A DNA stretch of 42,013 bases from an uncultured Candidatus Marinamargulisbacteria bacterium (GTDB lineage: Bacteria; Margulisbacteria; Marinamargulisbacteria; JABIPA01), in NCBI GenBank assembly GCA_964540745.1, contig CAZIOF010000163.1, positions 1 to 42,013 on the forward strand, written 5' to 3'. Both the position numbers and the translations under genes were made by a program. Of this stretch, positions 6,668-36,956 are shown one piece after another. Each line of letters opens with the position of its first letter. The stretch's first letter is position 1. The notes beneath the pieces are model-generated. The model was not told the origin of the DNA. It searched no databases and saw nothing but the letters and a program-made list of their open reading frames with translations.

Positions 6668-7744
6668 ATGTGGCAAGGCTTAATTAATGAATATCGTGAG
6701 TATCTTCCTGTTTCTGAAAAAACACCCGTTGTAACACTTATGGAAGGGAATACCCCTTTAGTAAAACTAAACCATCTCCCTAAAAAATATGGTATAGACG
6801 CTGACTGGTATGCTAAATTTGAAGGCAATAATCCCACTGGATCCTTTAAGGACCGAGGCATGACCATGGCCATCTCAAAAGCGAAAGAAGACGGGGCCAA
6901 AATCGTCATGTGTGCGTCAACAGGAAATACCTCTGCCTCCGCTGCAGCCTACGCCTCTAGAGCTGGCATGACCTGCTGTGTCCTTATCCCAAAAGGTAAA
7001 ATTGCACTGGGGAAATTATCACAGGCCATGATGCATGGCGCCATTGTCCTACAAATCGAAGGTAATTTTGATGTGGCCTTAAATCTTGTCCGAGACATTA
7101 CCGAAAACTACCCCATAGCCCTTGTTAATTCCGTTAATCCTTATCGAATTGAAGGCCAAAAAACAGGTGCCTTTGAAATTTCAGACGAACTAGGTGATGC
7201 CCCAGATTTCCATTTTATTCCTGTAGGTAACGCAGGAAATATTACGGCTTACTGGAAAGGCTATAAAGAATATTTGGACAAAGGAAAAATAACACACCTC
7301 CCAAAAATGATGGGCTTTCAAGCAGCCGGATCAGCGCCCATTGTTGAAGGAAGAATTATTGAACATCCTGAAACCATTGCCACAGCCATCCGTATCGGAA
7401 ATCCTGCAAGCTGGAAATCCGCCGAAAACGCACGTGATGAATCCCATGGCAACATCGATATTGTCACAGATGATGACATTACAGTAGGACAAAAAGACCT
7501 TGCTCTAGACGGCATCTTTTGCGAACCCGCCTCTGCGGCATCCATCGCTGGGGTGATTAAACATCATCAAAAATCACCATTCAAAAAAGGACAAACCATT
7601 GTCTCCATTATCACTGGCCATGGCCTCAAAGACCCTAATAGAGCCATCGAAATATCAGCAACCCCTCAATTAGTCAAAGGTTCAAAAGACGCTATTTTAT
7701 CTATACTAAGTCCTTATATGACAACAGAAACAACAACACGTTAA
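6668..7744 (+). CDS. thrC: Threonine synthase
   Basis: 358 aa. N-terminus [34 protein letters not shown]-lysine motif [11 protein letters not shown], and [10 protein letters not shown]. Confidence 0.93.
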
Positions 7745-23100: not shown

Positions 23101-25349
23101 TGTTCTGAAATTTGGATATCAAATAAGGGCCATTCTTGAGTCGAAAAATCTAAGGATCGATAATCCTCACGAATTGTTTCTAAATCCTTTGTAGTCATCA
23201 CAATTGAATAATGATAGGGCGCCTCTAATAATACGCGCTGGTTAGCCTCTTTATCAAAGACAACACGAAGAATAGCCTCACTAGCTACCAACTGATTCCA
23301 ACGTTCTTCTAAATCTACCGGCTCAATATCTGAGACAATAATCTCAAAATAGGCCATCGTTTTTCGCCCTGAAAGACGATGAAACATATAACTTTCCTGA
23401 AGAGCCGAAAGAGAAAAGAGCCCCTTCACATTCTGTTGTTTAACACTTGAGCTAGGACCTTCCCTTGGTATTTTAGGAATCCTCTTTATAAGATCCTTAA
23501 AGCAAGTATCCGTATCACATGATAAAAGAGACTGAAGCGATATCCTTATACCAAATAATCGCTCAAGTTCCGAAGCAAAGGCAACTAACTTCAGAGACGA
23601 CACCTCTAATGTCTGTTCAAAGTAATGATTATAAAGACTTTCTGGTGAAGAACACGCTACTTTCTCCTCACACACAGACTTAACTTCTAAGAGAGGCGTA
23701 ATAGCTAACAACTGTTGTCTACATTTAGAGCGTTGAATTTTTCCACTCGCTGTTTTAGGAATATCACCCTTCTGAACACATACAAATTCATCAATCGAAA
23801 TGCCTGCAACCTCTTCTATCGCTGAAAGGATATTGGCCCCTTTCTCTTTAAAAAACTGAAGATTCTTTTCCGAAGACGACATCTCCAATAAAATATATAA
23901 TCGCTCATTACCCAATTCATTATCCGAAAACGCAGCAATAAGCCCATGGTCAATCCCTTTAACTTGAGATAACACAAACGCCTCAATATCAGCAGGATAA
24001 TAATTCTTTCCATGCTTTATGATGAGCTCTTTCCGTCGCCCCGTAATATAAATATGATTATCTTTAACAAATCCTAAATCTCCTGAACGAAGATACGGGC
24101 CCTCATCTCCAATATAATTCATAAAAACATCTTGAGACGCTTCTTTTTGTTGCCAATATTGTGTTGCAAGTGAAGGCCCTTTAATCCACAATTCGCCTAT
24201 ATGATTAGGTTGACATCGTTGTTTTGTTTCTACATCCACAGAAAGAACCCGAGTATCTGATATGGCCACCCCACAAGACGAAATACGTTTACTCTTATGA
24301 TCAGGCTTAGTTCTAAATAAAAGTTTATTTTGTTTCAACCTAGACTTATCTAGTGTCAAAATAGGTGTATCCCCTTTCCCTTTAACCGTCATAATACTGG
24401 CTTCTGACATCCCATATACCGGAGTAAATACGTCTTTAGACACATTAAATAACGAGGGAAAGCGCTCAACAACACCTGGATTAATAATTTCGCCACCACA
24501 TAAGGCCTTGATTAAATGAGGTAAATCAACCTTTTTTTTAGGATTGTGTTCTAACCAAGAAAGACATCTCTCATACCCTGAATTTGAGCAAGCTGTATGA
24601 GACACCTTATATATATCTAAAACATCAATCCAATGTTCAGGGTTAACAAACCCAGATTTAGGCAACATAATAATGCACAAAGACCCCGAATATAGGGGAT
24701 ACAAAAAATTAAATAAAATCCCAAATCCATGGAACTGAGGAAGCCAAGACGCAGACACGGAATCGGTCGTATAAGTCAGTGAATGAACCAAGGCTTTAGC
24801 ATTATGCAATAACTGCTGATGCGTAATAGCAACCCCCTTTGGGTCACTCGTCGAACCCGATGTATAAATTAAAAAGGCAATCTCTTGCTTAGAAGCGTGT
24901 TGCACCTCCCTTTTTTCCGTTAATAATTCAAACGGACAAAGAACAGTCACCCCATTATCTTTGCTATCCAAAAATTGAGAAAGCGATACAGCGCCCTCTT
25001 TAGACGTCAAAACAGTTTGACTCCCAGAAGATCGAACAATAGTTTCTAATTGCCCATAGTCCTCTCCCTTAGGAAGGGGTACAGGAACAACAATAAGCCC
25101 ACATTTGAAACAAGCTAACGTGACCTCTATAAATGCTAGCGATTGAGGAAATAGCAGTATAACAGGTCCCTCTATACCAACAGAGGCTAACCTTGCACTA
25201 AGCCTATTAACCGACTGAAAAAGCTCCAAAAACGTTAAGTCGTGAACACCCTCGCATTGTTCCACCATTCTGAAGGCGACCTTATCCGGCTGGTTAGTAG
25301 AATGCCTAACTAAACTGTCATAAATATTAATCATGCTAAAACCAATCAC
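17154..25349 (-). CDS. Hybrid NRPS-PKS megasynthase: FAAL-ACP-Cy-Cy-A(Cys)-Ox-like-KS-linker
   Basis: 2731-aa uninterrupted ORF; domain motifs are listed in the sub-features. The GTG at 25349 is the longest start. ATG at 25334 (MINIYDSLVRH...) is the more typical FAAL N-terminus. The protein ends ~160 aa after the KS, with no AT, ACP or TE. Confidence 0.95.
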   Translation of the reverse strand: MIGFSMINIYDSLVRHSTNQPDKVAFRMVEQCEGVHDLTFLELFQSVNRLSARLASVGIEGPVILLFPQSLAFIEVTLACFKCGLIVVPVPLPKGEDYGQLETIVRSSGSQTVLTSKEGAVSLSQFLDSKDNGVTVLCPFELLTEKREVQHASKQEIAFLIYTSGSTSDPKGVAITHQQLLHNAKALVHSLTYTTDSVSASWLPQFHGFGILFNFLYPLYSGSLCIIMLPKSGFVNPEHWIDVLDIYKVSHTACSNSGYERCLSWLEHNPKKKVDLPHLIKALCGGEIINPGVVERFPSLFNVSKDVFTPVYGMSEASIMTVKGKGDTPILTLDKSRLKQNKLLFRTKPDHKSKRISSCGVAISDTRVLSVDVETKQRCQPNHIGELWIKGPSLATQYWQQKEASQDVFMNYIGDEGPYLRSGDLGFVKDNHIYITGRRKELIIKHGKNYYPADIEAFVLSQVKGIDHGLIAAFSDNELGNERLYILLEMSSSEKNLQFFKEKGANILSAIEEVAGISIDEFVCVQKGDIPKTASGKIQRSKCRQQLLAITPLLEVKSVCEEKVACSSPESLYNHYFEQTLEVSSLKLVAFASELERLFGIRISLQSLLSCDTDTCFKDLIKRIPKIPREGPSSSVKQQNVKGLFSLSALQESYMFHRLSGRKTMAYFEIIVSDIEPVDLEERWNQLVASEAILRVVFDKEANQRVLLEAPYHYSIVMTTKDLETIREDYRSLDFSTQEWPLFDIQISEQSDHFIIHVALDLIIVNLTSVDTLFGRWFSNQPLSDVKKGCYQTAIEALIDKEKKGVEQYLEYRKGKLQDKLIPPVFLSEEDSGLVEQTMGRYTHQLSAHHVEKIQLITKEKRITVSAFFLAAFIQILSSWALVKDFSVVIPFLQQDQDNDILGLFMIPLFFPVIDSLTEDLLDNASRVMEQLFEVLSYGAVSTSSIMRHYSDISCDRGLIVFSSLLGQVEQDIFAYDHYQIDLDSSFVKTAGVQLEHQLISIDGKVHLIWDVDVSKIHQDIALTMFNSYCSLIENLGLPLAVYSLSQVQNSYLIGREASFSGDIKSCQLYLEFKLRSVSSSTITDTWMLLMSEFEDSRLLLTSDFQVERQESAPSSPVIYDFSSRSLSDIEAHLASVRQEMAYSVKDLSRDELWECRLTKLDNDAVTLHFSFDFFFIDAQSAYFLVATFFTMLGQDGGARLKPKPHYSKYNHYRHSLLTTLTPKPVPFETYPLEPQFLSKYASDEGRYCLSMRCSFYDELKKKVTSLSWHMNSVLLFFLCHTIKHYVRDKQFSVVVVKMPRKPFDFNYKEAVGEFTTLSYLSFDGSASDSIERQITDLDSWLSGELALAPYDRLSEFKAYQKGDNSSFSFVYSMIPEDINIQLPPNSEFVLCKAQTPHVKWDQFCSVINNELIIHWDIESSYCSQKLAIDIHDHYLKTLEAFVFNKAMPLLDSKYVEKRPVTLSKEVDEERGGAGLTLVDYIAKAVDTFPQRIGVVYGDERLSYTQLACASNQCARWLVSLGVCKNSRVGICLPNSGECLSLLIGVMKCGAVFVPLDTRLPDGRKDFIACDLNLDVLIDGISEPDIQSSTTCIFVKPQVSLESYWITFDNQNFSEAICDTDLAYIIMTSGSTGAPKGVKLTHRSIINTLEDIRYRFQLIETDAVLNVSSLGFDLSIFDIFGILSVGGKLVFPDYLQRLNSDYWADLIEQESITIWNSVPSLMSLLHKQVKRKSRLSTLRLCLLSGDWIPVELALTLRRDYPDLQIVSLGGPTESSIWSVCYPINVVDSSWSSIPYGKPLSNQILCVVNEEGRLCDEGEIGELYIGGKGVSEGYVNRDQLTDDKFILSSFLGYSGRFYKTGDLVSCDESGLFWIHGRKDNQVKLNGLRIECGDIEYHLNQYTEGVHSIVVLKGAKDSEKSLVCFYTARDAIDQDRLKDYLKDRLPLYMIPNNFIYLDTFPLTSNQKVDRGQLLKWASYQGVVDLMALNHYGKDAVRSRLYTLLKPLLLTQVNGQYSAQYPSAGSCYPIKVYLYMHHELSSDLKKGLYYLEQRQQLLLYCGEVFDFEDKGQCVGDCHLIFASNASYIRSKYGDHASSFMLTELGSMVSLLSAKQSAYSLESLSDVNHQELEGLIQKREIIKQLYCRLVQDDMVNTPVSPGHLSSDLAVIGMSGRFPQCPSIYAFWDFLSKGQSAVSEVPWGRSWFGDKRGLKGAFLSGVDLFDASLFKYSPAEARFMDPQERLFLECVWETLEDAGYTSMALNKVSKEGVGVFVGSSYSDYQRWGKGVGLGSTPLSSGMGHIANRVSYYFCFSGPSFAVDSLCSSSFSALDVAVKAIRAGDCSSAIVGGCNLTLQDTKYHVLNRYDMISPSGQCHSFNSHGDGFVPGEGVGAVLIKPLSQAKKDGDHIYAVIKGVSISGTGYRRGYTMPNDQDQCRVITKAIHRAGLLPTNLDYVECHAPGTYLGDTSELKALSSLSKGRREPLKIGSLKPNVGHLEAAAGIISFIKMVLQLHFKQFLPTIGVTEPHSFISDLSQNLSVVTDLSPWQKEGKDPIRRGAVMSFGAGGTNGSVVLEEFISNDVATPCDGSQLFILSAMSWEQLVQYVTRCYGFLEMYKPSLEDVCFTLQRGRQGMQVRLFIVADSLDSLMASLVQIQALKPSVSLDHLGIDVSDSDRSGDPIKMFDSLAQLGQAWISGESVDWSSCFPDGDKRRISLPTYPFAKTSFWPECVEVR
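17640..18863 (-). other. Ketosynthase domain (approximate)
   Basis: DLAVIGMSGRFP, MDPQERLFLE, VDSLCSSSFSALD (Cys 18387-18389), ECHAPGTYLGDTSE, GSLKPNVGHLEAAAG, SFGAGGTNGSVVLEE. It is followed by a flanking linker ending in SLPTYPFAKTSFW. Confidence 0.9.
18915..19397 (-). other. SagB-type / nitroreductase-like Ox domain (approximate)
   Basis: QYPSAGSCYPIKVYLY (Tyr 19296-19298), KKGLYYLE, IRSKYGDHASSFMLTELGSMVSLLS. This matches the PSAGxxYPxExY ... GxYxY ... KYGxRxxRxxxxExG pattern of SagB/McbC-like dehydrogenases. Confidence 0.55.
19434..20924 (-). other. Adenylation domain, predicted Cys-specific (approximate)
   Basis: LAYIIMTSGSTGAPKGV (20439-20468), FDLSIFD, WNSVPS, LLSGDWIP, GGPTESSIWS, YKTGDL, GRKDNQVKLNGLRIE and NQKVDR (Lys 19455-19457). 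From memory, LSGDWIP and E(A/S)SIWS are hallmarks of Cys-activating A domains. Confidence 0.8.
20930..20938. repeat. C9/G9 homopolymer inside the NRPS ORF (Cy2-A linker, codons R-G-G-A)
   Basis: Read directly: ...tcctgCCCCCCCCCtctc...; the coding strand reads gag agg ggg ggg gca. Confidence 0.9.
20955..22232 (-). other. Heterocyclization (Cy) domain 2 (approximate)
   Basis: YSLSQVQNSYLIGRE start motif and canonical DFFFIDAQS (DxxxxDxxS) at 21807-21833. Confidence 0.8.
22245..23417 (-). other. Heterocyclization (Cy)-like domain 1, variant core motif (approximate)
   Basis: Cy-type N-terminal motif FSLSALQESYMFHRLSGR. The core motif is DLIIVNLTS (23043-23069), i.e. DxxxxNxxS instead of DxxxxDxxS. 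Confidence 0.65.
23454..23672 (-). other. ACP domain (approximate)
   Basis: FEQTLEVSSLKLVAFASELERLFG; Ser codons at 23595-23600, an atypical E-V-S-S-L attachment motif. Confidence 0.6.
23706..25334 (-). other. Fatty acyl-AMP ligase (FAAL) domain (approximate)
   Basis: FLIYTSGSTSDPKGVAITH, YGMSEA, GDLGFVKDNHIYITGRRKELIIKHGKNYYPADIE, TASGKIQR. Confidence 0.85.
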
Positions 25350-25554: not shown

Positions 25555-26595
25555 TTGATCAATAAACACTATCTTTCTAAAAAAGTTCTGACAATATCGT
25601 CTCCTAACATTATTCTAATTATCCTATTTTTCAATCCCGTATTATGTATAGCCAGCCCTACTCCATCCCTATCTATTCAAAAGCAGTGTCCAATAGGATA
25701 CAAACTAATACAAAGTTGGCCTAAAGCTAATATCTTTATACTCAATAAAACAAAAACGTCGCCAAGAACACTCATATACACAACCAAACAAACGTTATTA
25801 AAAGCGGCACAATCGGTCCCCTCAGCAAACCAAATTCAACAAAAAAAAATCTTACAAGAGACCATCAACGATCTTGAGCAAACGACTCCCTCTCATTCTA
25901 TCCAGACCATAAAACAGTATCTAACCACACAACTAGAATTGCACAAAAAAAGACAACAAAACAAAAATAGACGCCTTTTATTTCAACAGCTAACAACCTC
26001 CGCTAACCGCCTCACAAAACCCATAAATAACCTGAAAAAAGAAGGGGTTCCCAAACGTCATTTAACCATTTTTCTTGAATACCCCTCACTCTTTCCCTAC
26101 ATACTAAAAAGTAGTAATGCCATGTGGGAAAGAACCAAATACCACTTTGGAAAAAATAATCTTGAACATGGCATTGAAAATGCAATTACCCATGCCTATT
26201 GGATGATATCTCTTGCAAAAAGCTTAGAAACGGTTTATTCATACCAGGAAATTTTGAAGATACTAGCTACACTATCTGAAATACACGAGCAATTCCCAGA
26301 AAACCCGCCCCTCATCAAAGCAATGGATATTCATAACAACTCAGTTGGAATAGCGTTATATAAAAAACACGCAACCGTTATCAAGCACTCTGTAACCCTC
26401 ACATGGCAGGAGACCCCCTTCAACTATCATTATAGCACCAGCGTCACATCGCCCTCGCTCGATTTCTTCTGGACAGAATGTCTCAAACAAAAAAAAGAAG
26501 CTACTATTATAACCACGCATAAAATACCTAAACAAAACCTCAACCGCCTGGTTTTTCTGTCACCGACAAGCCCATTGTCGCCCAAAAGGTTTTAA
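25555..26595 (+). CDS. Hypothetical secreted/membrane-anchored protein
   Basis: 346 aa with a TTG start. The N-terminus is hydrophobic (NIILIILFFNPVLCIAS). Conserved-looking motifs NAITHAYWMISLAK, IHEQFPE and MDIHNNSVGIALY are present, but I do not confidently recognise a family. Its stop overlaps the convergent rSAM stop by 4 nt. Confidence 0.55.
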   Translation: MINKHYLSKKVLTISSPNIILIILFFNPVLCIASPTPSLSIQKQCPIGYKLIQSWPKANIFILNKTKTSPRTLIYTTKQTLLKAAQSVPSANQIQQKKILQETINDLEQTTPSHSIQTIKQYLTTQLELHKKRQQNKNRRLLFQQLTTSANRLTKPINNLKKEGVPKRHLTIFLEYPSLFPYILKSSNAMWERTKYHFGKNNLEHGIENAITHAYWMISLAKSLETVYSYQEILKILATLSEIHEQFPENPPLIKAMDIHNNSVGIALYKKHATVIKHSVTLTWQETPFNYHYSTSVTSPSLDFFWTECLKQKKEATIITTHKIPKQNLNRLVFLSPTSPLSPKRF

Positions 26596-28076
26596 CCCCC
26601 CACCAACTGGACCTCAGGATCGTTTACTGACTGGGTAGGGACATCAAATTTACAAAGATTATCTCTTTTTTCTTGCCCATCTCGTCCTGTTCTAATAAAT
26701 ATTAAATTAATAAACTCACGAATCCGAAACAAAACCTTCATCTCTATATTATATTCCCTAAATATCTTTATCATCCTTAATACCCTAAAAGGGTTCAAAT
26801 GAAATAAGAACATCGTTACAGTTCTGATAAGTATCAATAACCATTGAGGAACATGTGATAAATTTTTCGTTCCATAAAAAAAGACATTACTCTCATTCGG
26901 CAAGGCATGTTCTTTCTTTAAATCATTGTATAGCTCTGTCCCTGGGTAAGGAAAGACGGTAGAAATATAAGCGATTGTTAACTTTGATGTTAAAACACAC
27001 CAAGACGTTTTAAGCATTTGCCATACTGTTTCATTAGGAAATCCCACCATAAAAAATCCGCCTGTATAAAGATCTAATCGATGTGAAATATCTAGAATAC
27101 GATTAATAACATCAAGCCTATTTTTCTTTTTAATCTTTATCTGTGTCATCATATCCGTCGTTTCGACAGCATAAAATATAATGCCTAAACCTGCTTTTTT
27201 GAGCAGAACCAACTGCTCTTCTGTCAACAAATCGGCTCTAACGCCATTAGGAAAATGGAACCTAATAGATAATTTCTTTTCGATGACTAACTCACAAAAC
27301 TCAACCAATCGCTTGGGATTAAGATTCCAGATATCATCTACAAATTCAAAATCATAAATATCATAGTCGTTAATTAAAGACTCAATTTGGCTCACCATAC
27401 GCTTAGCTGAAATTTCTCGAAATGTTTTCCCAAAAACATCATGACAAAATGTACACTTGTACGGACATGCACGTGACGTAAACAACCCCATATAACGTCG
27501 TTGCCCCACTGGAGTGGAACTTCGTGACGAATAGAATTCAATATCCACCATGTCCCAAGCAGGATCTGGCAAAGAATCTATATCTAAAGAAGGCCTTGGA
27601 ATAGCCAAAACCGGACACCCTTTCTCATCTCTAAAAATAGTCCCCGGAATATGCGTTAACGACTTATTTTCAACACGACGCTGAACAATCTCCAAAAAGG
27701 TTCCTTCTCCCTCACCCACAACAGCTAAATCAATCGCTGAATCATCCAGAACTGCTTCACGAGACGAGGAAGGGTAAGCCCCTCCTGCAACAATAAGTGC
27801 CTCAGGACAATGATAACGAAAATAGCGCGACATATGATGCATATTAACGTGATCATTTGAAAGCGCAGAAAGCCCCACAATATGTGGCTTTTGGGTATCT
27901 ACCAAAGCAAGAAGACGATCAATCTCGCCCGGCTTCATAGGATCAACCAATTCAATATTATCAAAGCCATTTTCACGAAGATAAGACGCTAAGCTCATTA
28001 ATCCTAGCGGATAAAAAACCATTTCATGATGTTTTGGCAAACCAGAAACACTACAACTAACAAGTAAAATATTCAT
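26592..28076 (-). CDS. B12-binding-domain radical SAM enzyme (class B rSAM)
   Basis: N-terminal cobalamin-binding-like Rossmann fold (NILLVSCS...PLGLMSLASYL...PHIVGLSALS). The radical SAM cluster motif is TSRACPYKCTFCHD (CxxxCxxC, 27444-27467). It starts 6 nt downstream of the preceding ORF's stop. Confidence 0.9.
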   Translation of the reverse strand: MNILLVSCSVSGLPKHHEMVFYPLGLMSLASYLRENGFDNIELVDPMKPGEIDRLLALVDTQKPHIVGLSALSNDHVNMHHMSRYFRYHCPEALIVAGGAYPSSSREAVLDDSAIDLAVVGEGEGTFLEIVQRRVENKSLTHIPGTIFRDEKGCPVLAIPRPSLDIDSLPDPAWDMVDIEFYSSRSSTPVGQRRYMGLFTSRACPYKCTFCHDVFGKTFREISAKRMVSQIESLINDYDIYDFEFVDDIWNLNPKRLVEFCELVIEKKLSIRFHFPNGVRADLLTEEQLVLLKKAGLGIIFYAVETTDMMTQIKIKKKNRLDVINRILDISHRLDLYTGGFFMVGFPNETVWQMLKTSWCVLTSKLTIAYISTVFPYPGTELYNDLKKEHALPNESNVFFYGTKNLSHVPQWLLILIRTVTMFLFHLNPFRVLRMIKIFREYNIEMKVLFRIREFINLIFIRTGRDGQEKRDNLCKFDVPTQSVNDPEVQLVGG

Positions 28077-28082
28077 AGAAGT

Positions 28083-30329
28083 TTATCTCCATACCATACT
28101 AGACTCTCCTTTCGCAGGATAGTCCCTATCGATTAGACAAGCCCCCGATTCTTCAATATAGTAACGACTATTCACCCCTAAGTTCTCAAAATTTTGGACA
28201 CGTCCAGACGGCCAATAAATCTGAATATTGTTAATTTTCTTTGCATATCCTAAACCTATTTCTTGCTGTAAACTATTACTTCCAAAGCTACCCCCTGTCC
28301 CCACCGTTCTATAAATATTGCGTTGTTTTCCATGTTCCTCTATAAGGATATTAATCCTTGCACCAATAGCCAACCTATTAGAATCAGTACCCTGCAACTT
28401 AAGCGTAACCCAATTCATATCATTACCTGGATTTTCATAAAAAACGTTTGGAAAAACATCTGTAGGGTACCAACCACCCATAACAGTCAAGATATCTTGG
28501 TCACCATCATTATCAAAGTCACCCCAAGAAATCCCATGGCCTTTTTGTAAATGACCAAATCCACCTGAAGTCGTCACATCCTGAAAAAATACCCCGCCTG
28601 TATTTCTATACATTTTGTTAGGCAATAGCGCACTTAAATCAGGTGCTCCTGTCCCAAAATAAGCATCTAAATAACCATCATTATCCAAATCTCCAAAGTT
28701 ACACCCCATAACTAATAGCAAGCCATCTACCCCAGAATCAGCCGTTATATCTGTAAACGTACCATCACCATTGTTTTTATATAAACAAGGCCTTTCATAT
28801 GCAACATTTGGATTTTGATAAAGTTCCGCGATTAATGAGGGATAGTCTAAGGCTATTTCATAATTTGCAACAAAAATATCCATCAAACCATCATTATTAT
28901 AATCCCAAAACCAAACCGAAAAACTAGCAGTAGGTCCCGCAACGCCTGCCTCCTTGGTCACATCACGAAATCGATTCCCAACACCTTCATTTCGAAAAAG
29001 AATATTATCTTCTTGATGTCTTGATATATAAAGATCTGGCCATCCATCATTATCATAATCACCCCAAACAACCCCCTTTACAAAGCCTGTAACTGAGACC
29101 CCATACTCATGAGCTACGTTTGTAAACGTTCCGTCTTGATTATTACGATAAAGATCACAAGGGTATTCTGAATCTTTATTAGATTCATTCCCTATAAAAA
29201 GATCTAAAAAACCATCTCTATCAAAATCTCCCCAAGCCGCAGTTTGAGTCGGTATATATTGCAGCAATCCAGACGCAACCGTTACATCTCTAAATCGCCC
29301 ACCGCCTAAATTTTTCAATAAGGAATTAGGTTGTTTTCCATATCGTCTAAACCAACCACCGCGTAATACAAAAATATCAGCCAGTCCATCATTATCATAA
29401 TCAGCATGAATCATATTGAGCCCACCCGTAATTCCTAAAAGACCAGCCTCATTTGTCTTATCAATAAAGCCCCCTTTCCCATCATTCTTATAAAATCGTA
29501 ACTGGTCATCTAAACCGTAAGACGAGACCATGATATCAAGGTAGCCATCACCATCTAAATCATCAAGAATGCTTCCTCCTGCTAAGCCTAGCTCGTTAAG
29601 GTTAAGCTTAGGTGCTATATCGGAAAACTGAGGCAACTGATAGCCCGACTCAAAATAGTCATATGGAATTACCCATTGATTAAGCAGGTTATCCGAAGAT
29701 AATCCTAGAGTTGAGCAGGCTAAAGTCGACAACCAGTGCAACCCTCTATACTCTGGATAGCGTTGAATAGCCATCTTCAACTCATTAATGAGCTTGGAAG
29801 CATATCCGGTTTCTTCATATACCCCCTTATTTCGAATCGGAAAAATACAACGGGAACAATTATGCTTTTGAATGCAGTTTAGTTGTTCTCCCAATCTAAT
29901 ATAACTAACTATTATTTGTTTATGAATATCTTCAAATTCTCTTGCGCGCGCTAAGGGCCCCAGATCATTCAGCCCCGTATTTAATAACTGCGTATATGCT
30001 TGTATCGCAGCATCTGTATCGCCACTTAAAAGAGAAAGCTCTGCCAATTGTTTAGATAATTGACGTTGTTCAACTTGGGAGTTAACACCGTTTTTTTGAG
30101 AGACCCGCGTTCTAATAGCCTCCTGAATCAAACTGTCAGGAACATTTCCTAATTCCCCTCTAACCTCATTAAGGCGATAAACCATATCAGACGAAAAGGC
30201 CCTTCTCTTCATAACGCCTTGTAGATAAAAAAGGATCAGTATCCCAATAAATAGGAGTAAGACACCTCCTTTAAACACCTTTAACTTACCCATTGATCGG
30301 TATCCCCGTGATGTTTTCCGTAATAACAA
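28083..30329 (-). CDS. CRTAC1-family protein: TM anchor, TPR-like region, FG-GAP/VCBS repeats, UnbV/ASPIC C-terminal domain
   Basis: Seven DxDxDGxxD-type repeats: DLDGDGYLDIMV, DYDNDGLADIFV, DFDRDGFLDLFI, DYDNDGWPDLYI, DYNNDGLMDIFV, DLDNDGYLDAYF and DFDNDGDQDILT. C-terminus GARINILIEEHGKQRNIYRTVGTGGSFGSNSLQQEIGLG...IQIYWPSGRVQ. An alternative ATG at 30293 shortens the overlap with the upstream ORF. Confidence 0.88.
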   Translation of the reverse strand: MLLRKTSRGYRSMGKLKVFKGGVLLLFIGILILFYLQGVMKRRAFSSDMVYRLNEVRGELGNVPDSLIQEAIRTRVSQKNGVNSQVEQRQLSKQLAELSLLSGDTDAAIQAYTQLLNTGLNDLGPLARAREFEDIHKQIIVSYIRLGEQLNCIQKHNCSRCIFPIRNKGVYEETGYASKLINELKMAIQRYPEYRGLHWLSTLACSTLGLSSDNLLNQWVIPYDYFESGYQLPQFSDIAPKLNLNELGLAGGSILDDLDGDGYLDIMVSSYGLDDQLRFYKNDGKGGFIDKTNEAGLLGITGGLNMIHADYDNDGLADIFVLRGGWFRRYGKQPNSLLKNLGGGRFRDVTVASGLLQYIPTQTAAWGDFDRDGFLDLFIGNESNKDSEYPCDLYRNNQDGTFTNVAHEYGVSVTGFVKGVVWGDYDNDGWPDLYISRHQEDNILFRNEGVGNRFRDVTKEAGVAGPTASFSVWFWDYNNDGLMDIFVANYEIALDYPSLIAELYQNPNVAYERPCLYKNNGDGTFTDITADSGVDGLLLVMGCNFGDLDNDGYLDAYFGTGAPDLSALLPNKMYRNTGGVFFQDVTTSGGFGHLQKGHGISWGDFDNDGDQDILTVMGGWYPTDVFPNVFYENPGNDMNWVTLKLQGTDSNRLAIGARINILIEEHGKQRNIYRTVGTGGSFGSNSLQQEIGLGYAKKINNIQIYWPSGRVQNFENLGVNSRYYIEESGACLIDRDYPAKGESSMVWR

Positions 30330-33300
30330 CTGTCGTATTTTTCGTAAAAGGCCCTTCTATAAGTTGCTTTTCGCCCCCAGGCCATATAACCCTTATACGA
30401 TCTGCTTTTATATGTTTTTTAATTCCAAAGGTAAGGGTGGTATCTTCTTGTGACAAATAATTACTCCCACAGGTTACATACTTAGTCTGCATAGGCAATC
30501 CCTCCGCAAAAAGTGTTACCTTGGACCCCACCCCAAAATAATTATGGTTTATTCCCCTTAACTTTACCTTCAACCAGTTATTATTAGCTAAATTTAAATT
30601 CTTAAATATAGACGGCGCATGAACAAGGTCCGTTACAACAAGATCCATTTTTCCCTTATTAGACAAATCAACCGCAGAAACAGCTCTACTCAATGACGCC
30701 TTAAATAGAGGAGACTCCTTGTCATAGCGATAAAAACCTCCATTATACTTAATATAAAAGTGATCCTTTTGGTAACCAACAGAAGACCCAGGAATCCAAC
30801 CATTAGCTAAATAAACATCTTCATCCCCATCCATATCATAATCAAAAAAGGCCGCTCCCCAACACCAACCTTTATCACCTTGACCAAAAGACATCCAGTC
30901 TGGAGTAAAGCGAGCCCCGTCTTGCTTAAGAAGCAACTTATTTCCAGAAAGATATAGAGATGTGTTTAATACCCTATCATCTAACGAAAAGGTATCCTGG
31001 GGTGTAGGAAATTTAAGCACCTCGGTTTTTGAATACATATCAACCATCGTTACATAAACATCAAGATTACCATCATGATTGACATCAACCACACTGGCGT
31101 TCATCCCATGCCCCCTGTCATTAAAATGATAGTGTTCCCCCATTTCGTCAAACTTACCCTCTTTATTATTAATAAAAAGCTGATCTTCACCAAAATCATT
31201 CACAACAATAAGGTCTTGCCATCCGTCACTATTAACATCCATAGACGCAGCAGCTAATGTCCATCGCGAACTAGCGAGGCCTGACTCATGAGTAACCTCG
31301 CTAAAGACGCCTTGTCCCATATTTTTAAATAACTGATTAGGAATACCATTACGGCCATCCGTAGAGGGCTTTCCTTTCCCATAGTTTCCGATAAAAAGGT
31401 CTAATAAACCATTCCCATCATAATCAAAAAATAACGATGTCTGCGCGCCAACATTCGTTTTAATCCCAGAAATCTTCGTAATATTCTTAAAGGTCTGATT
31501 ATGCAACTGCAAAAACAATTGAGAAGGAGATTGTGAATGAACAATGAACAGATCTTGTCTTCCATCATTATTAATATCTACAAATAAAGCTTGGCGTGAG
31601 TCTCTATAAAACGTATCATCTATCCCTATCTCGTAGGATAAATTATGAAACGAAAAATCGCCCTCATTTTTGTATAAATAATTACCTCCAACCCCAGGAA
31701 AAAAAAGGTCTGGCAAACCATCTTGATTATAATCGCCAACCGCAACCCCTGTACCAACCGTACGTTGACTAAATTCCTGTTTATTTAAATCAAAAACAGC
31801 CAAAGTAGAGCAAACTAATAATAATAAAACGCTAAAAGCAAGCAAATAATAGCCACCCCAGATGTAGAATATGGCCGTAACAAGAACCAAAGCAAGAACA
31901 GACCAAAAACATAGAAACAGCAACTCTTTATTAATAAAATTAGGAACCATCAAATGCCGGATCCCACTTCTCGACGAAACATCCTGAAAAAGGGGGTAAT
32001 TATAGTCCAAAAAAACGTGTTCTTCAGAGTCTCTTTTAACATCACTTGTATCTAACGTCTTCGTAGATGATGGTAAAAAAAAGAAATGCTGGTCTAAAAA
32101 CGATATCATAGTCTCTTCAGTGACTTCATCAATCCCCAAATTTAGACTATACAATTCACATTCTTTTAAATAAATCCCTATCATTTCTGACAATCTTTCT
32201 GAAAAGTATTCCAAGGCAAAAGGATCGATAGGTTTAATATCTGATTTTTGATATATGCGCTGCAGTATCTTCCAATGAAACATGGTATCCCGAATAGCAT
32301 CTAAATACACATCCGATACGCGCCGTATACGCGTCTCATCGTTAAGCTCATTATCATAAATCGTCACTGAAACATCGCCATCAGAATGACTTACTCGAGG
32401 AAATAACAACTCAAAAACAGTCGCAATAACACCAGTTGAAAGATACGCTTGAGGCGCTGCATTCTGATAAAGTTCCTTATGTAAAACATATCGGTGTATC
32501 GGCCGAAAAACAGGGGCGTTTTCTCTAGGAGAATATCCTCTTGCAATAAAATAAGATATCGCTTCTATCCGCCCCAAAAGACTATCCAAAGCGTCTTTGG
32601 TGAACGACACATTATAGTAACTACTAAGTTTAGAAAAAGGTTGTCCAATATCACTAGTATCCTGAACACGGTTCCAGGACATAAGAGAGTTGATTTTATT
32701 AGTAATATAGCGTGAGGTTATATCAAAAACAAAAGGAAGGGCATCATTCTCTACCAAATCATCAATCGGAGAATCGTCCTTACTATCGTAGCTCTGTACG
32801 TGGGTCAGATCTAATAAACGCTTATATGCATACTGTGCATCTGAATATATAACTTTAGGGTGATTAAGCACTTCCGCTCTCTTTTGAGAAAGAACCGTAA
32901 GGCACATTGAAAGCGTCGATATTTTTCCTGAAAAATAGACTAAGGCCTGTTTAGTAAACGGTTTTAATGCATACGCAATTTGAGACGATTTATAAGGGCG
33001 TAAGATCTCCTCTATAAGAACAGAAAGAAGACTTCGAAACCCTTCCGTAGTCTGATTAAAATTAGTTAATGCCAGATTAAAATAACCGGTTTGAAACAAA
33101 TCATAATCAGACAGTTCATCAAAAAGTTTATCATAAATAGGATCTATCTCTTCTTCGGAAATAAAGGAGGCATTAGTTTCCAAAGATAGGTGACGCCAGA
33201 ACCTATAAGCAAGTATCTTAATCGCTTCAATTTGAAGTATCACAGCCTTCTCTGATAACGGGATCTGTCCAGCATAGTTTTCAATTTTACGAATACTCGA

Positions 33301-33537
33301 CCAACAAACGGTATCATTATCACATTCTTTTACAAATATGTTTTCAAGAAGAACATCGCTCACTTCAAATAACGGATCCTGCTGTTGAGAAGAAGGATTC
33401 CCAAAAGAACTATCAGAACACAAAAGACTCATAACAACAGTCAACACAACAACAAAACGCATGATTGAAAGAGAGTCCCCACATCTAGGATCTAAAGCAA
33501 CACTGAACATACAGAAAATCCATTTTTTAAAAAGCAT
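30286..33537 (-). CDS. Large membrane protein: ~555-aa unrecognised N-terminal domain, TM segment, FG-GAP/VCBS repeats plus UnbV/ASPIC-like C-terminus
   Basis: Signal-like N-terminus MRFVVVLTVVMSLLCSDSSFG. TM region LLFLCFWSVLALVLVTAIFYIWGGYYLLAFSVLLLLVCSTLAVF. Repeats DYNQDGLPDLFF, DINNDGRQDLFI, DYDGNGLLDLFI, DVNSDGWQDLIV, DVNHDGNLDVYV and DYDMDGDEDVYL. C-terminus GVGSKVTLFAEG...GSNYLSQEDTTLTFGI...IRVIWPGGEKQ. Confidence 0.85.
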   Translation of the reverse strand: MLFKKWIFCMFSVALDPRCGDSLSIMRFVVVLTVVMSLLCSDSSFGNPSSQQQDPLFEVSDVLLENIFVKECDNDTVCWSSIRKIENYAGQIPLSEKAVILQIEAIKILAYRFWRHLSLETNASFISEEEIDPIYDKLFDELSDYDLFQTGYFNLALTNFNQTTEGFRSLLSVLIEEILRPYKSSQIAYALKPFTKQALVYFSGKISTLSMCLTVLSQKRAEVLNHPKVIYSDAQYAYKRLLDLTHVQSYDSKDDSPIDDLVENDALPFVFDITSRYITNKINSLMSWNRVQDTSDIGQPFSKLSSYYNVSFTKDALDSLLGRIEAISYFIARGYSPRENAPVFRPIHRYVLHKELYQNAAPQAYLSTGVIATVFELLFPRVSHSDGDVSVTIYDNELNDETRIRRVSDVYLDAIRDTMFHWKILQRIYQKSDIKPIDPFALEYFSERLSEMIGIYLKECELYSLNLGIDEVTEETMISFLDQHFFFLPSSTKTLDTSDVKRDSEEHVFLDYNYPLFQDVSSRSGIRHLMVPNFINKELLFLCFWSVLALVLVTAIFYIWGGYYLLAFSVLLLLVCSTLAVFDLNKQEFSQRTVGTGVAVGDYNQDGLPDLFFPGVGGNYLYKNEGDFSFHNLSYEIGIDDTFYRDSRQALFVDINNDGRQDLFIVHSQSPSQLFLQLHNQTFKNITKISGIKTNVGAQTSLFFDYDGNGLLDLFIGNYGKGKPSTDGRNGIPNQLFKNMGQGVFSEVTHESGLASSRWTLAAASMDVNSDGWQDLIVVNDFGEDQLFINNKEGKFDEMGEHYHFNDRGHGMNASVVDVNHDGNLDVYVTMVDMYSKTEVLKFPTPQDTFSLDDRVLNTSLYLSGNKLLLKQDGARFTPDWMSFGQGDKGWCWGAAFFDYDMDGDEDVYLANGWIPGSSVGYQKDHFYIKYNGGFYRYDKESPLFKASLSRAVSAVDLSNKGKMDLVVTDLVHAPSIFKNLNLANNNWLKVKLRGINHNYFGVGSKVTLFAEGLPMQTKYVTCGSNYLSQEDTTLTFGIKKHIKADRIRVIWPGGEKQLIEGPFTKNTTVVITENITGIPING

Positions 33538-33799
33538 GAAGAAAAACCAAAGAAGATCTAAACACTATTAAGAGAGGAAAACAAAGACATAATATACACT
33601 TTATTATTTAAAATTAAAAAAAGGGGAATGACCATCCTATAATATCATACTTTTAGGTTAGAGAGGAATCCCCTCTAAGGCGATTAGCACAGGATATTGA
33701 CAGGGTTCACTAGAACGATCAGAAAGCCTACTTCATCAAATAATCACGTTAAAAACAATATTAAGTAAACATCACTGAATTAACGATAGGTAATCCAAA

Positions 33800-33839
33800 T
33801 TGATCATATATTATCCCGATTGTAGAATTAGACTATAAT
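33800..33839 (+). promoter_or_regulatory. Candidate sigma70-like promoter for the enoylreductase gene
   Basis: TTGATC (33800-33805), a 17-nt spacer, then TAGAAT (33823-33828). A perfect TATAAT also lies at 33834-33839. The site is 43-54 nt upstream of ATG 33882. This is pattern match only, in an AT-rich region. Confidence 0.25.
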
Positions 33840-33881
33840 GACTTACCTATCTAAAAAATCCAAGGGATACTCGGTCTTACA

Positions 33882-35183
33882 ATGACAAAAAAAAGCACCC
33901 TATTTTGTCGGACATTTAATGTCGATCACCCCTATATCGCTGGGGCAATGGCCCTTGGGATATCCTCAAAAGAACTCGTCCACAACATGGCCCAACATAG
34001 ATTACTCTCATTTTTAAGCGTTGGCGGTCGACCTTTAAACGATATCGAAGCTGATATTAAGTGGCTTAAACAAAAGGCCTCTGGCTCTTGGGGTGTGAAC
34101 TATATCCATCACTTTAACCAACCAGAAAAAGAAATGAAACTAATGCAACTCTTATTGCGTTATAACATCACTCTAATCGAAGCCTCCAGTTTTATGTCCA
34201 TTACAAAGGAACTTGTACAATATCGAGTATCAGGATTAGAAAAAGTGGGGAATAAAACCCACTGTCATCATCATATTATTGCTAAACTATCACATCCAAA
34301 AGTTTCGGAAGCGTTCTTATCCCCACCCCCCAAAAAGTATCTTACAGAACTTCTAAATGAAGGTGCCATTTCATCTCAACAAGCAACATTAGCCACCTCA
34401 ATCCCCATGGCCGATGCCATTACCATAGAAGGTGATTCTGGAGGCCATACAAGCCAAGGACTATCTTTAGCCATATTTCCTACACTCCATGCATTTAAAA
34501 ACACCATTGAAACACAACACAACTACACCCAGGACATCTTTATAGGTCTAGGCGGTGGGATAGGAACGCCTCATGCAATCAACGCCGCCTTTTCTTTAGG
34601 CGCAGATTATGTGATGTCAGGGTCCATCAATCAATGTACCCTCGAGGCGGCTACAAGTTCTCTTGTAAAAGAATTATTATGTGAGGCATCGATTCAAGAT
34701 TTTTCTTATGCCCCAGCAGGTGACATGTTTGAAATAGGGGCAAAAGTACACGTCTATAAAAAAGGGATCTTATTTCCTGTTCGTGCAAACCATCTTTATC
34801 AACTCTATCAACACTATAACAATATCGAAGACATTCCATCTTCTGTTAAGGCTCGTTTAGAAAATGACTATTTCCAGGCGCCTTTAACAACAGTATGGGA
34901 GGAAATAGAACGTTACTCCCTAAAAAAGAACCATAATAATCACTCCCATACGCTACACTCAAAAAGAAAAATGGCCCTTATCTTCAAAACATACTTTAGA
35001 AACTCTTCTCAGTACGCCATTAAGGGTATGGAAAAAGAAAAATTGAACTTCCAAATTCATAGCAGCCCAGCAATAGCAGCATTTAATCAGTGGGCAAAAA
35101 TGTCGCCACTAAACGACTGGAAAAAAAGATCCGTTAGCGATATCAGTTTAAGATTATTAGAAAGCGCCTCTTTATCACACTAA
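33882..35183 (+). CDS. PfaD-family trans-acting enoyl reductase (FMN/TIM-barrel, nitronate monooxygenase-like)
   Basis: HPYIAGAMALGISSKELV, ITLIEASSFM, IIAKLSHPKVSEAFLSPPP, ITIEGDSGGHTSQG, FIGLGGGIGTPHAINAAFSLGADYVMSGSINQCTLEAATS, GDMFEIGAKVHVYKKGILFPVRA. These match the PfaD/PksE-type ER signature. Confidence 0.9.
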   Translation: MTKKSTLFCRTFNVDHPYIAGAMALGISSKELVHNMAQHRLLSFLSVGGRPLNDIEADIKWLKQKASGSWGVNYIHHFNQPEKEMKLMQLLLRYNITLIEASSFMSITKELVQYRVSGLEKVGNKTHCHHHIIAKLSHPKVSEAFLSPPPKKYLTELLNEGAISSQQATLATSIPMADAITIEGDSGGHTSQGLSLAIFPTLHAFKNTIETQHNYTQDIFIGLGGGIGTPHAINAAFSLGADYVMSGSINQCTLEAATSSLVKELLCEASIQDFSYAPAGDMFEIGAKVHVYKKGILFPVRANHLYQLYQHYNNIEDIPSSVKARLENDYFQAPLTTVWEEIERYSLKKNHNNHSHTLHSKRKMALIFKTYFRNSSQYAIKGMEKEKLNFQIHSSPAIAAFNQWAKMSPLNDWKKRSVSDISLRLLESASLSH

Positions 35184-35186
35184 AAC

Positions 35187-36956
35187 CTATCCACTACTAA
35201 ATAGATCCTTTCGAATAGCATGTAAATCTATCACACGCCAATCTAGAACATGATGTAATGTATACGCTTTTAATATGTCTATAAGTGGGTGAGGCGACTG
35301 GATTAATAAATGAGAGACCTCATACTCACATAAATCCTTTAAAACCGTTAATGTGGCTGTTGTCTGAGAATAAAATGCAATGACCACTGTTAACCGTTGT
35401 TTCCATTCTCCAAAATAATCATTATCTTTTTGAAACTTATTGGCAGGGATCTTTGTCCCAACTAAAATGGGAACCCCTGTTGTCAAACGAAAATCAATAA
35501 TATTAGGGGGGATCACATAAACCTGTCCAGATTGACGTGATAATTTAGCCCACTCCATAATACGGTGCAATCTAGAACCATTTTTCTCACGAAAATCAGA
35601 CCTCGTATAATCGACTCCCCAAAACACTGTAAGCACAATAAGAAAAGCCCCTACAAACGGAACAGCTATATAATGAGAAGCAGGTTTCAACCTTTCAATA
35701 ATCCAAGATAATAAAACAACTAACGCAAGGGGAACCATCACTACTGAAAGACGCCAAGGCATTAACTCATTGAAAAACAGATTCTCTAAAGAAGACGCCA
35801 CTAAGGCCATAAAAGATAGCCCTATAATAATAACGAGACCAAACCAAAAAAGGCGTTTGATAAACCCCTGACGTACTAAACATGCCGCCGTAATAACCAT
35901 TATCAATTGGAAAAGAACACTGCCATTAAACCAAACCATCGGGTCCGTATGAAACGCATACATGGTTTTAATAAAATAGTCGTGTGCCGGTAATAGTTTT
36001 GAACGAAGCGGATGAGAAAAAAATTGGATTAAATAATAAGCAAAGAGAGCCCCGTTAACTGTAAAGGTAAGAAAAAGTGCTTTAAAATACGGTTTTGTTT
36101 GATAACAAAGCCATAGCATCCCTATAAGAACGAGACCTGCAATCCCTATAATGGTGGGTAAAAATAATAAATAAGGCCCAAAAGAACTTCCCCACGATAC
36201 GACATAAAGAATCGAACTCATAATCACACCTAAAAGATTGAATAAAAGAAAGAGGCGATACTGAGAGAGCCTTTCTTTATACACAGATACAATTTTGAAT
36301 CCAACAATACAAAACACGACAAAAAACAAGCCAAAATGAAGAAAAACGGCAACAAAATCACATAAATACGATAACTTTCTTTGCCCCTTTATCCAAAACC
36401 ATATCCCAAGAAATAAAAATACACCGAACAAACTGGGCTGAAAATACGTATTCATCACATATTGATTAGCCACGCCCCAATGAAGAAAAGACGCCCCTTC
36501 ATTAAAATAAGCCTGAAACCCTGGGAAAAGATCAAGCCCCTTATTAAAAAAATCATAAAGAAAACGAGAATGAAAAAAGGTCAGCAAGGAAAAAAGGACA
36601 TAATACAATGTACTACCATAGTTTATTCCCGATAGAAAACAACTAATCCCAAGTAACGAATGAATATAAACACCTACCAAACATAACCAGTAGATGTAAA
36701 ACCATATCGAAGATAAATAGGTGAATGTAAGAAACGTAATGCCCGTAAATATGGGCATAGCTTCGCTTACTTTAACAATCCAATCATTAGCTAAAAAACC
36801 ATAACCCGCCTGTGCCATACCGTGCAGAAAATAATGATTTTGATTACTATAAAACAGAGGTTTCCAAGAATAGGCCAGACAAAACAATGCCGTTAAAATA
36901 ACAGTGTTTAATAAACGATAAAGAGTAATACGGTTAAATAATTTAAGTATTGTCAT
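35187..36956 (-). CDS. Polytopic integral membrane protein (about 12 or more TM helices) with ~130-aa C-terminal soluble domain; function unknown
   Basis: 589 aa and very hydrophobic, with conserved-looking NQNHYFLHGMAQAGYGFLANDW near the N-terminus. Its ATG overlaps the PKS stop (ATGA, 36953-36956). Confidence 0.75.
   Translation of the reverse strand: MTILKLFNRITLYRLLNTVILTALFCLAYSWKPLFYSNQNHYFLHGMAQAGYGFLANDWIVKVSEAMPIFTGITFLTFTYLSSIWFYIYWLCLVGVYIHSLLGISCFLSGINYGSTLYYVLFSLLTFFHSRFLYDFFNKGLDLFPGFQAYFNEGASFLHWGVANQYVMNTYFQPSLFGVFLFLGIWFWIKGQRKLSYLCDFVAVFLHFGLFFVVFCIVGFKIVSVYKERLSQYRLFLLFNLLGVIMSSILYVVSWGSSFGPYLLFLPTIIGIAGLVLIGMLWLCYQTKPYFKALFLTFTVNGALFAYYLIQFFSHPLRSKLLPAHDYFIKTMYAFHTDPMVWFNGSVLFQLIMVITAACLVRQGFIKRLFWFGLVIIIGLSFMALVASSLENLFFNELMPWRLSVVMVPLALVVLLSWIIERLKPASHYIAVPFVGAFLIVLTVFWGVDYTRSDFREKNGSRLHRIMEWAKLSRQSGQVYVIPPNIIDFRLTTGVPILVGTKIPANKFQKDNDYFGEWKQRLTVVIAFYSQTTATLTVLKDLCEYEVSHLLIQSPHPLIDILKAYTLHHVLDWRVIDLHAIRKDLFSSG

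Follow-up and report, generated by a model that had tools for sequence, protein, structure and literature searches.

The window analysed here is a 42,013-nt stretch of DNA from an uncultured Candidatus Marinamargulisbacteria bacterium (GenBank assembly GCA_964540745.1, contig CAZIOF010000163.1, positions 1-42013). Within a trans-acyltransferase (trans-AT) polyketide synthase (PKS)/nonribosomal peptide synthetase (NRPS) cluster it carries three head-to-tail minus-strand genes, which encode a cobalamin (B12)-binding radical S-adenosylmethionine (SAM) enzyme, abbreviated rSAM, and two CRTAC1-like β-propeller proteins, named CrtA (the 1083-aa protein) and CrtB (the 748-aa protein) in this analysis. 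The evidence moderately favours the view that these genes form a composite operon, in which an rSAM tailoring enzyme linked to the cluster is co-transcribed with a free-standing tandem cassette of CRTAC1-like genes. The genes, their domains and the divergent gene beyond them are as follows, where ORF denotes an open reading frame, TM transmembrane, AF2 AlphaFold2, pLDDT the predicted local distance difference test score and trans-ER a trans-acting enoyl reductase.

26592-28076, minus strand: rSAM gene, 494 aa, class-B (B12-binding) radical SAM enzyme (ORF call, Pfam)
27687-28019, minus strand: B12-binding domain of the rSAM, residues 20-130 (PF02310)
27009-27479, minus strand: radical SAM core of the rSAM, residues 200-356
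27444-27467, minus strand: CPYKCTFC [4Fe-4S]-binding motif, rSAM residues 204-211 (regular-expression match)
28083-30329, minus strand: CrtB gene, the shorter of the two CRTAC1-like proteins, 748 aa with the TTG start and 736 aa with the ATG at 30293 as start
30204-30293, minus strand: N-terminal membrane anchor of CrtB, residues 13-42 (hydropathy)
about 28410-29612, minus strand: seven-blade Ca-blade propeller of CrtB (Pfam and motifs)
28161-28370, minus strand: UnbV_ASPIC domain of CrtB (Pfam)
30286-33537, minus strand: CrtA gene, long CRTAC1-like protein, 1083 aa
33400-33462, minus strand: signal-like segment of CrtA, residues 27-46 (hydropathy)
31942-33390, minus strand: all-α N-domain of CrtA, ~480 aa, residues 50-532
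31780-31938, minus strand: two-helix TM hairpin of CrtA, residues 534-586, a 53-residue hydrophobic stretch with AF2 helices at 534-559 and 565-582
about 30568-31770, minus strand: propeller of CrtA (Pfam; AF2 pLDDT mostly >90)
30349-30534, minus strand: UnbV_ASPIC domain of CrtA (Pfam)
33538-33881, no strand: divergent intergenic region of 344 nt, common to CrtA and the trans-ER gene, presumed promoter of the three-gene unit (gene layout)
33882-35183, plus strand: PfaD-family trans-ER (TIGR02814, 489.8 bits against a cutoff of 449)

Focusing on the CRTAC1-like side of the unit, all cluster proteins were used as queries against two sets of 80 loci, one with CrtB relatives (1.42 Mb) and one with CrtA relatives (1.48 Mb, collected with the CrtA-family alignment), every locus being taken with 10-kb flanks. 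An rSAM orthologue, a trans-ER or a PKS cluster was found in 0/160 of these CRTAC1-like loci (within ~10 kb, 2.9 Mb), the sole exception being a 26%-identical B12-binding rSAM encoded 7 kb from a CrtB homologue in one Bacteroidetes locus (L018); such enzymes are very common, and a single B12-binding rSAM in 2.9 Mb would, by an estimate rather than a measurement, be at or below their background density. On the rSAM side, ~92 loci of rSAM relatives (78 metagenome and eight genome loci, and six further loci fetched by exact look-up) held no CRTAC1-like gene, trans-ER or PKS within 10 kb. A scan of genome contigs with the rSAM sequence alone found no relatives, and the clade alignment then gave the eight genome loci. 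The combination of rSAM and CRTAC1-like genes is unique to this cluster, with no sign of a conserved system. The recurring adjacency of CRTAC1-like and class-B rSAM genes for which the initial annotation had suggested a survey was thus absent from both sides, and the functional unit that it had suggested from the tight coupling of the genes is not supported, since the adjacency was seen in this genome only and without co-conservation, the outcome that the initial annotation had itself named as refuting.

The only close orthologue of the rSAM (P0002, 61% amino-acid identity; the next best has at most 47%) is encoded on a 2.6-kb metagenome contig, L090, which the same study obtained from a different sample. 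There, an orthologue of PfaD lies 122 nt from the rSAM orthologue in divergent, head-to-head orientation with nothing between them, and it is 76% identical to the trans-ER of the window over 288 residues. In a search of 5.8 billion clusters, the next-best PfaD homologue reached 47%, aside from the window's own protein at 100%, and because no nearer trans-ER homologue lies beyond L090, the cluster appears to be without a close known relative apart from this fragment. In the window, CrtA, CrtB and the 344-nt intergenic region all lie between the rSAM gene and the trans-ER gene. Given the arrangement in L090, the difference between the two lineages at the rSAM/trans-ER junction would be exactly the CRTAC1-like pair, and this pair alone; the linkage between the rSAM and the PKS would be conserved, and the propeller genes would be dispensable for it. 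The intergenic DNA of the two loci has no similarity above that of shuffled sequences, and because it has diverged so far and GC content and codon usage are uniform, insertion of the pair in the window lineage cannot be told from its loss in the lineage of L090.

The CRTAC1-like genes have a different set of neighbours. When all ORFs within 7 kb of 76 CrtB-type genes were clustered, the only recurrent neighbour family was the CRTAC1-like family itself (other families each occurred in at most six loci); two or more CRTAC1-like genes were present in 41 of the 76 loci, and an immediately adjacent CRTAC1-like gene on the same strand in 27. A Marinamargulisbacteria contig (L180) carries two CrtA-type genes in tandem beside a ribosomal protein gene, metagenome-assembled genomes (MAGs) of Myxococcota and Bradymonadia (L260-L265) carry CrtA-type genes beside housekeeping genes, and a more distant CrtA relative is found in a SusC/SusD locus (L181) with a second CRTAC1-like gene and a gene for a vanadium-haloperoxidase-like PAP2 protein. 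From these neighbourhoods, the CRTAC1-like genes appear to form a free-standing, usually tandem, envelope cassette.

The Bacteroidetes locus named above (L018, positions 1-22088, MAG B1T1B10) has a richer content. It encodes a GT2 glycosyltransferase, a PhyH dioxygenase, a phosphopantetheinyl transferase (PPTase), a ketosynthase (KS), FabA, a PglD-like acyltransferase, a CRTAC1-like protein of 1057 aa that carries a fused, polytopic and permease-like domain at its N-terminus, and a CrtB homologue at 48% identity, as well as a DegT aminotransferase, a PMT_2-like membrane protein, a short-chain dehydrogenase/reductase, a GDSL lipase, an ABC-2 transporter, the B12-binding rSAM and a methyltransferase.

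In the window, the three packed minus-strand ORFs described by the initial annotation were recovered at the same coordinates by mechanical ORF calling. Of the two junctions that it gave, the 6-nt gap stands (the TAA of CrtB, 6 nt and the ATG of the rSAM), whereas the 44-nt overlap of CrtA and CrtB holds only with an upstream TTG start of CrtB. An independent ENA gene call chose the ATG at residue 13 of CrtB (MGKLKVFK), which yields a protein of 736 aa and an 8-nt overlap with CrtA, ATGGGTAA. Under either start, the three genes are tightly coupled translationally, and the arrangement recurs on three independent metagenome contigs with an identity of 99.8-99.9%. Promoter-like and terminator matches in the window do not exceed shuffle expectation and are uninformative on internal promoters; the three genes probably share a promoter in the 344-nt region. 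The initial annotation had seen no precursor-peptide ORF, and no plausible one is present in 33538-33881; an Rfam scan of the window found no riboswitch and no other RNA family. The GC content, GC3 and codon usage of CrtA and CrtB match those of the neighbouring genes and mark neither gene as foreign, and a recent horizontal insertion of the two genes is not claimed.

By both of its defining domains, the 494-aa protein is assigned from sequence to the class-B radical SAM enzymes, with matches to the B12-binding family PF02310 (56.4 bits, cutoff 32.1, E = 3.5e-15) and the Radical_SAM family PF04055 (41.9 bits, cutoff 29.5). The cysteines of CPYKCTFC are invariant across a clade alignment (A1) of 18 sequences, composed of rSAM relatives at 39-61% identity. 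No characterised rSAM subfamily was reached among those of NCBIfam, which include BchE, HpnJ/HpnR, PhpK, the ladderane type, ApyD, AprD4, KedN5 and TsrM: all 18 matches fell far under their cutoffs, the best being BchE with 151 bits against 481. A ladderane-type enzyme was ruled out (TIGR04072, 98 bits against a cutoff of 360), and so was a maturation system for ribosomally synthesized and post-translationally modified peptides (RiPPs), with no plausible precursor ORF in 33538-33881 and no SPASM or RiPP recognition element domain in the Pfam search. The PDB matches to the clade profile include AprD4, OxsB, TokK, CysS and TsrM, among which are methylases and non-methylases. Methyl transfer to an unactivated carbon would be the most likely chemistry of the rSAM, because it is the commonest chemistry of class-B enzymes and because the cluster is already rich in methylation functions, with an AprA-like loading module and a C-methyltransferase domain in the PKS.

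The clade to which the rSAM belongs is small, and its other members are almost entirely from Candidatus Omnitrophota. Tandem paralogue pairs are typical of these Omnitrophota rSAM genes, with outer-membrane protein, resistance-nodulation-division (RND) efflux or polysaccharide genes as neighbours. On three of the contigs (L004, L006 and L091), such pairs adjoin an RND efflux system, a short conserved ORF and a gene for an outer-membrane protein of the Phenol_MetA_deg or DUF3108 type; in L091, they directly follow glycosyltransferase and hexapeptide-acyltransferase genes. The clade's surroundings suggest an envelope-related role for its ancestral enzyme.

Both large proteins were matched by FG-GAP_3 (151 bits in CrtB and 125 bits in CrtA) and by UnbV_ASPIC, PF07593 (52.2 and 48.5 bits, respectively, with a cutoff of 23.4), and the calcium-type motif Dx[DN]x[DN]GxxD occurs in seven copies in CrtB and six in CrtA, compared with a mean of 0.01 in shuffled sequences. 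The domains that the initial annotation had assigned to all three proteins were thereby confirmed, with every Pfam match above its curated cutoff, as were its calcium-type repeats, its CPYKCTFC motif in the rSAM and its TM anchor in each large protein, the latter as hydropathy segments in CrtB and CrtA and as the helices of the CrtA hairpin in the AF2 model. With an identity of 25%, CrtA and CrtB would be old paralogues from different subfamilies.

Besides its anchor, propeller and UnbV_ASPIC domain, CrtB contains a helical region with cysteines. Compared by sequence only, it matches vertebrate CRTAC1 (PDB entry 9etn) with a phmmer E-value of 5.6e-8. Its relatives occupy at least 585 genome loci, with 40-52% identity over residues about 95-727, across many phyla, with loci in Latescibacterota, Planctomycetota, Bacteroidota, Verrucomicrobiota, Acidobacteriota, Dehalococcoidia and others, and an N-terminal hydrophobic segment is present in 51 of 67 CrtB-type relatives.

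The full-length AF2 model of CrtA, made with a 38-sequence alignment, has a mean pLDDT of 82 and a predicted template modelling score (pTM) of 0.76, and the top Foldseek match of its C-terminal half is murine CRTAC1 (9etn; E = 6.4e-27, TMt 0.71, 538 columns). The family defined by the N-domain is rare (71 clusters in 1.84 billion representatives), and almost all of its members are 1000-1090 aa long with the same layout. The two-helix hairpin was found in CrtA of the window only and is absent in 37/37 aligned relatives. An N-terminal hydrophobic segment was detected in 22 of the 37 by a 19-residue hydropathy scan, and most of the remaining relatives have, by inspection, N-termini resembling signal peptides or those of lipoproteins (lipobox). 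Modelled alone, the N-domain (pLDDT 80.6, pTM 0.82) is composed of four helix-strand-helix units, and its best PDB matches, which are weak, are single-chain H2A-H2B dimers and an SOS histone domain (E = 0.01-0.3, TMt 0.45-0.56); the conserved N-domain motifs in the family are KDATCW, TENWR, DAxRDTxxHW and DPFAAE. Should this weak lead hold, it would be uncommon for a fold of the histone type to occur outside the cytoplasm.

As judged from hydropathy and AF2, putative signal or anchor segments occur at the N-termini of CrtA and CrtB and of many relatives. Because a signal segment precedes the two-helix hairpin, the N-domain and the propeller of CrtA would both lie on the outer side of the membrane, and the propellers of both proteins are predicted to face the periplasm or the cell surface. 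No TM or signal segment was found in the rSAM by hydropathy, and enzymes of the radical SAM superfamily need cytoplasmic cofactors. The topology prediction that the initial annotation had proposed would place the propellers outwards and the rSAM in the cytoplasm. Since they would occupy opposite sides of the membrane, the rSAM and the propellers would be unable to act on one molecule simultaneously.

The surrounding cluster extends over 12582-41986, with the trans-AT PKS on one side of the three-gene unit and the NRPS-PKS hybrid on the other, in agreement with the location inside a PKS/NRPS cluster given by the initial annotation. Its other main genes are as follows.

14132-17110, minus strand: AprA-like loading module (domain calls)
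17154-25349, minus strand: NRPS-PKS hybrid, 2731 aa (domain calls)
35187-36956, minus strand: polytopic membrane protein, 589 aa, ~10 hydrophobic segments (hydropathy); context, outside the three-gene unit
36953-41986, minus strand: trans-AT-type PKS (Pfam/NCBIfam domains)

The loading module consists of AprA_N, a winged helix, an MT2-like domain and tandem acyl carrier proteins (ACPs). The gene for the polytopic protein begins within the end of the upstream PKS gene, its start and the PKS stop having 4 nt in common, and the only domain match of this protein is DUF6798 (22.5 bits, under the cutoff of 26.9); the protein may be the real export or handling component of the cluster. On a contig of a different sample that is 99.8% identical (L001, 4832-13011), the NRPS-PKS ORF is called as a gene of 1540 aa and a gene of 1185 aa, and the split near residue 1540 reflects either a strain-level frameshift or an assembly difference. 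The PKS ORF opens with a KS C-terminal linker (KAsynt_C_assoc, RhiE-like linker, residues 8-122) rather than with a KS, and for this reason either more than one gene encodes the module or the ORF truly starts outside the window. Convergent with the rSAM gene, and overlapping its 3′ end by 4 nt, is a DUF6973 gene (25555-26595, plus strand) encoding a protein with a signal-like N-terminus, which is called shorter (319 aa) on a variant contig (L002).

Several further observations concern the rest of the window. At 1640-3366 on the plus strand, an ORF of 110 aa corresponds to no more than the C-terminal portion of CvpA, and of methionine synthase the next ORF (465 aa) has the B12-binding and activation domains alone; both are possibly split or truncated genes. 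Over the whole window (1-42013, plus strand), a negative GC skew (-0.10 to -0.38) is accompanied by a positive AT skew, regardless of gene orientation. The threonine synthase encoded at 6668-7744 is 65-68% identical to proteins of Candidatus Omnitrophota and similarly so to those of some Planctomycetales and others, and the ThrC-apgM gene pair of the window recurs in many of the loci that hold these relatives. Taken with the Omnitrophota affinity of the rSAM clade, these similarities would make an Omnitrophota-like host likely, although the assembly is recorded as Marinamargulisbacteria. No close genome was found in the species-representative collection.

In the composite reading, which we regard as moderately favoured, the three genes would be one translationally coupled transcription unit built from two unrelated modules. 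The first would be the cytoplasmic rSAM, which would belong to the trans-AT PKS/NRPS cluster, staying beside the trans-ER in the one available sister lineage, and would perform a radical tailoring step on the polyketide-peptide, most likely the methylation of an unactivated carbon by way of cobalamin. The second would be CrtA and CrtB, exported and membrane-tethered Ca-blade propellers from two old and widespread subfamilies, which may bind an extracytoplasmic ligand independently of the rSAM chemistry. With the promoter region on one side and the rSAM gene on the other, the pair would be co-expressed with the cluster in this lineage. Several points weigh against this reading. The 8-nt and 6-nt junctions mean that the three genes are expressed together, and the composition of CrtA and CrtB, being like that of their neighbours, gives no sign of a recent foreign insertion. 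The hairpin unique to CrtA of the window looks lineage-specific and could reflect recruitment. L018, the only surveyed locus with CRTAC1-like, KS and B12-binding rSAM genes, is maybe beyond coincidence. The sister-locus evidence is a single 2.6-kb contig, and other parts of that cluster could contain CRTAC1-like genes. As for the chemistry, the best PDB relative of the rSAM by profile, AprD4, is a dehydratase and not a methylase, and the reaction type of an enzyme that matches no characterised subfamily is not readable from its sequence.

Some of these points are accommodated by a lineage-specific recruitment, in which the CRTAC1-like pair was co-opted to bind, scaffold or mature the exported metabolite outside the cytoplasm, or to protect against it, perhaps in concert with the polytopic membrane protein whose gene adjoins the PKS. 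Translational coupling to the rSAM, the promoter region common with the trans-ER gene, the membrane hairpin found in CrtA alone among 38 family members and the coupling of the polytopic protein to the PKS gene are all consistent with it, and L018 joins two CRTAC1-like genes (one permease-fused) with KS, FabA, PPTase and B12-binding rSAM genes. Enediyne PKS cassettes, in which UNBV-type proteins are conserved, would be a further parallel. The pair is nevertheless absent between the rSAM and trans-ER genes of the sister locus, no PKS cluster accompanied any surveyed CRTAC1-like locus, the lone B12-binding rSAM would be no more than background, and both subfamilies mostly occur beside housekeeping or polysaccharide-utilisation genes, so that we consider recruitment possible but doubtful. 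Maturation or binding of the metabolite outside the cytoplasm, and self-protection or export, two of the roles raised by the initial annotation, are tenable only in this lineage-specific form. Conversely, both modules could be passengers, with the rSAM serving an envelope or lipid pathway, as may also be true of its Omnitrophota relatives, and its adjacency to the trans-ER in two lineages being inherited synteny. The rSAM relatives with 40-47% identity do adjoin outer-membrane, RND efflux, glycosyltransferase and hexapeptide acyltransferase genes and never a PKS, but the rSAM-PfaD adjacency has been kept at protein identities of 61% and 76% although the intergenic DNA has diverged beyond recognition, and the absence of any other relative above 47% for either protein fits their co-inheritance as one cluster; we hold this explanation to be rather unlikely. 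The third role in the initial annotation, an independent rSAM-dependent pathway inserted as a unit into the cluster, would account for the tight packing of the three genes, but it is contradicted by the sister locus, where the rSAM stays with the PKS gene and the propellers are absent, and it also conflicts with the different predicted compartments, the lack of co-occurrence in ~250 surveyed loci and the lack of a plausible precursor-peptide ORF in 33538-33881, and is very improbable. As a whole, the interpretation of the initial annotation is partly supported.

If the composite reading is true, a gene cannot be taken for a tailoring or handling component of a biosynthetic cluster on the strength of tight operon packing alone, and CrtA and CrtB would be over-annotated by cluster-mining tools; the rSAM would be the one candidate worth pursuing, as a member of an unassigned class-B subfamily that is conserved beside a trans-ER in a trans-AT PKS/NRPS cluster. 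If recruitment is true instead, the pair would give a first access to the function of the bacterial CRTAC1 family, which is very large and uncharacterised.

Compared with known systems, the rSAM resembles the class-B tailoring enzymes (TokK, CysS, TsrM, the GenK-type methylases and the non-methylase AprD4) in its B12 domain, its CxxxCxxC core and its location in an assembly-line cluster, whereas the other genes of its clade occur in Omnitrophota, away from PKS genes and often as tandem paralogue pairs. CrtA and CrtB share with the CRTAC1/ASPIC-UnbV family, including vertebrate CRTAC1 (9etn), a Ca-blade FG-GAP propeller followed by UnbV_ASPIC, as well as putative export signals, and their plasmid-borne relatives carry the annotation 'CRTAC1 family protein'. 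To our knowledge, none of the bacterial proteins in this family has an assigned function. Vertebrate CRTAC1 contains an EGF-like domain and an O-glycosylated tail (PMC10477339), both of which CrtA and CrtB lack (no Pfam match); CrtA instead adds the ~480-aa N-domain and the membrane hairpin, and CrtB the N-terminal anchor and the helical region. The Bacteroidota-type SusC/SusD loci, represented by L181, have like the window two adjacent CRTAC1-like genes on the same strand, whereas the window has no SusC/SusD or PAP2 gene and the pair is flanked by PKS/NRPS genes.

A further comparison is offered by the enediyne clusters. Zazopoulos and co-workers reportedly described, in 2003, UNBV (E4) proteins in the enediyne minimal PKS cassette, and the UnbV half of the Pfam name may come from a conserved gene of this cassette. 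A statement that such proteins are without precedent in biosynthetic clusters is probably too strong. A search of the literature on UnbV found no enediyne paper, and a plasmid tblastn search gave no Streptomyces match and no E4 sequence. In published accounts, UnbV is said to denote proteins of Rhodopirellula and other bacteria (PMC10477339), and the enediyne cassette includes three conserved genes whose function is still unknown (PMC9992847). It is conceivable, though improbable, that UnbV_ASPIC/CRTAC1-like propellers are a recurrent and overlooked extracytoplasmic accessory of polyketide and lipid pathways, with the enediyne UNBV proteins, L018 and the present cluster as candidates; as part of the same idea, CrtA and CrtB would receive or hold the hydrophobic product on the outward face of the membrane together with the polytopic membrane protein, with the hairpin unique to this CrtA as the adaptation for docking. 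The PKS of the window is modular and of the trans-AT type, combined with an NRPS (KS, ketoreductase, methyltransferase, ACP, condensation and adenylation domains), unlike the iterative PKSE of the enediyne cassette, and none of the partners in that cassette (the thioesterase and the E3/E5 genes) was seen among the PKS/NRPS genes of the window. What the two would share is a polyketide cluster with genes for a predicted-secreted UnbV_ASPIC protein and for an integral membrane protein.

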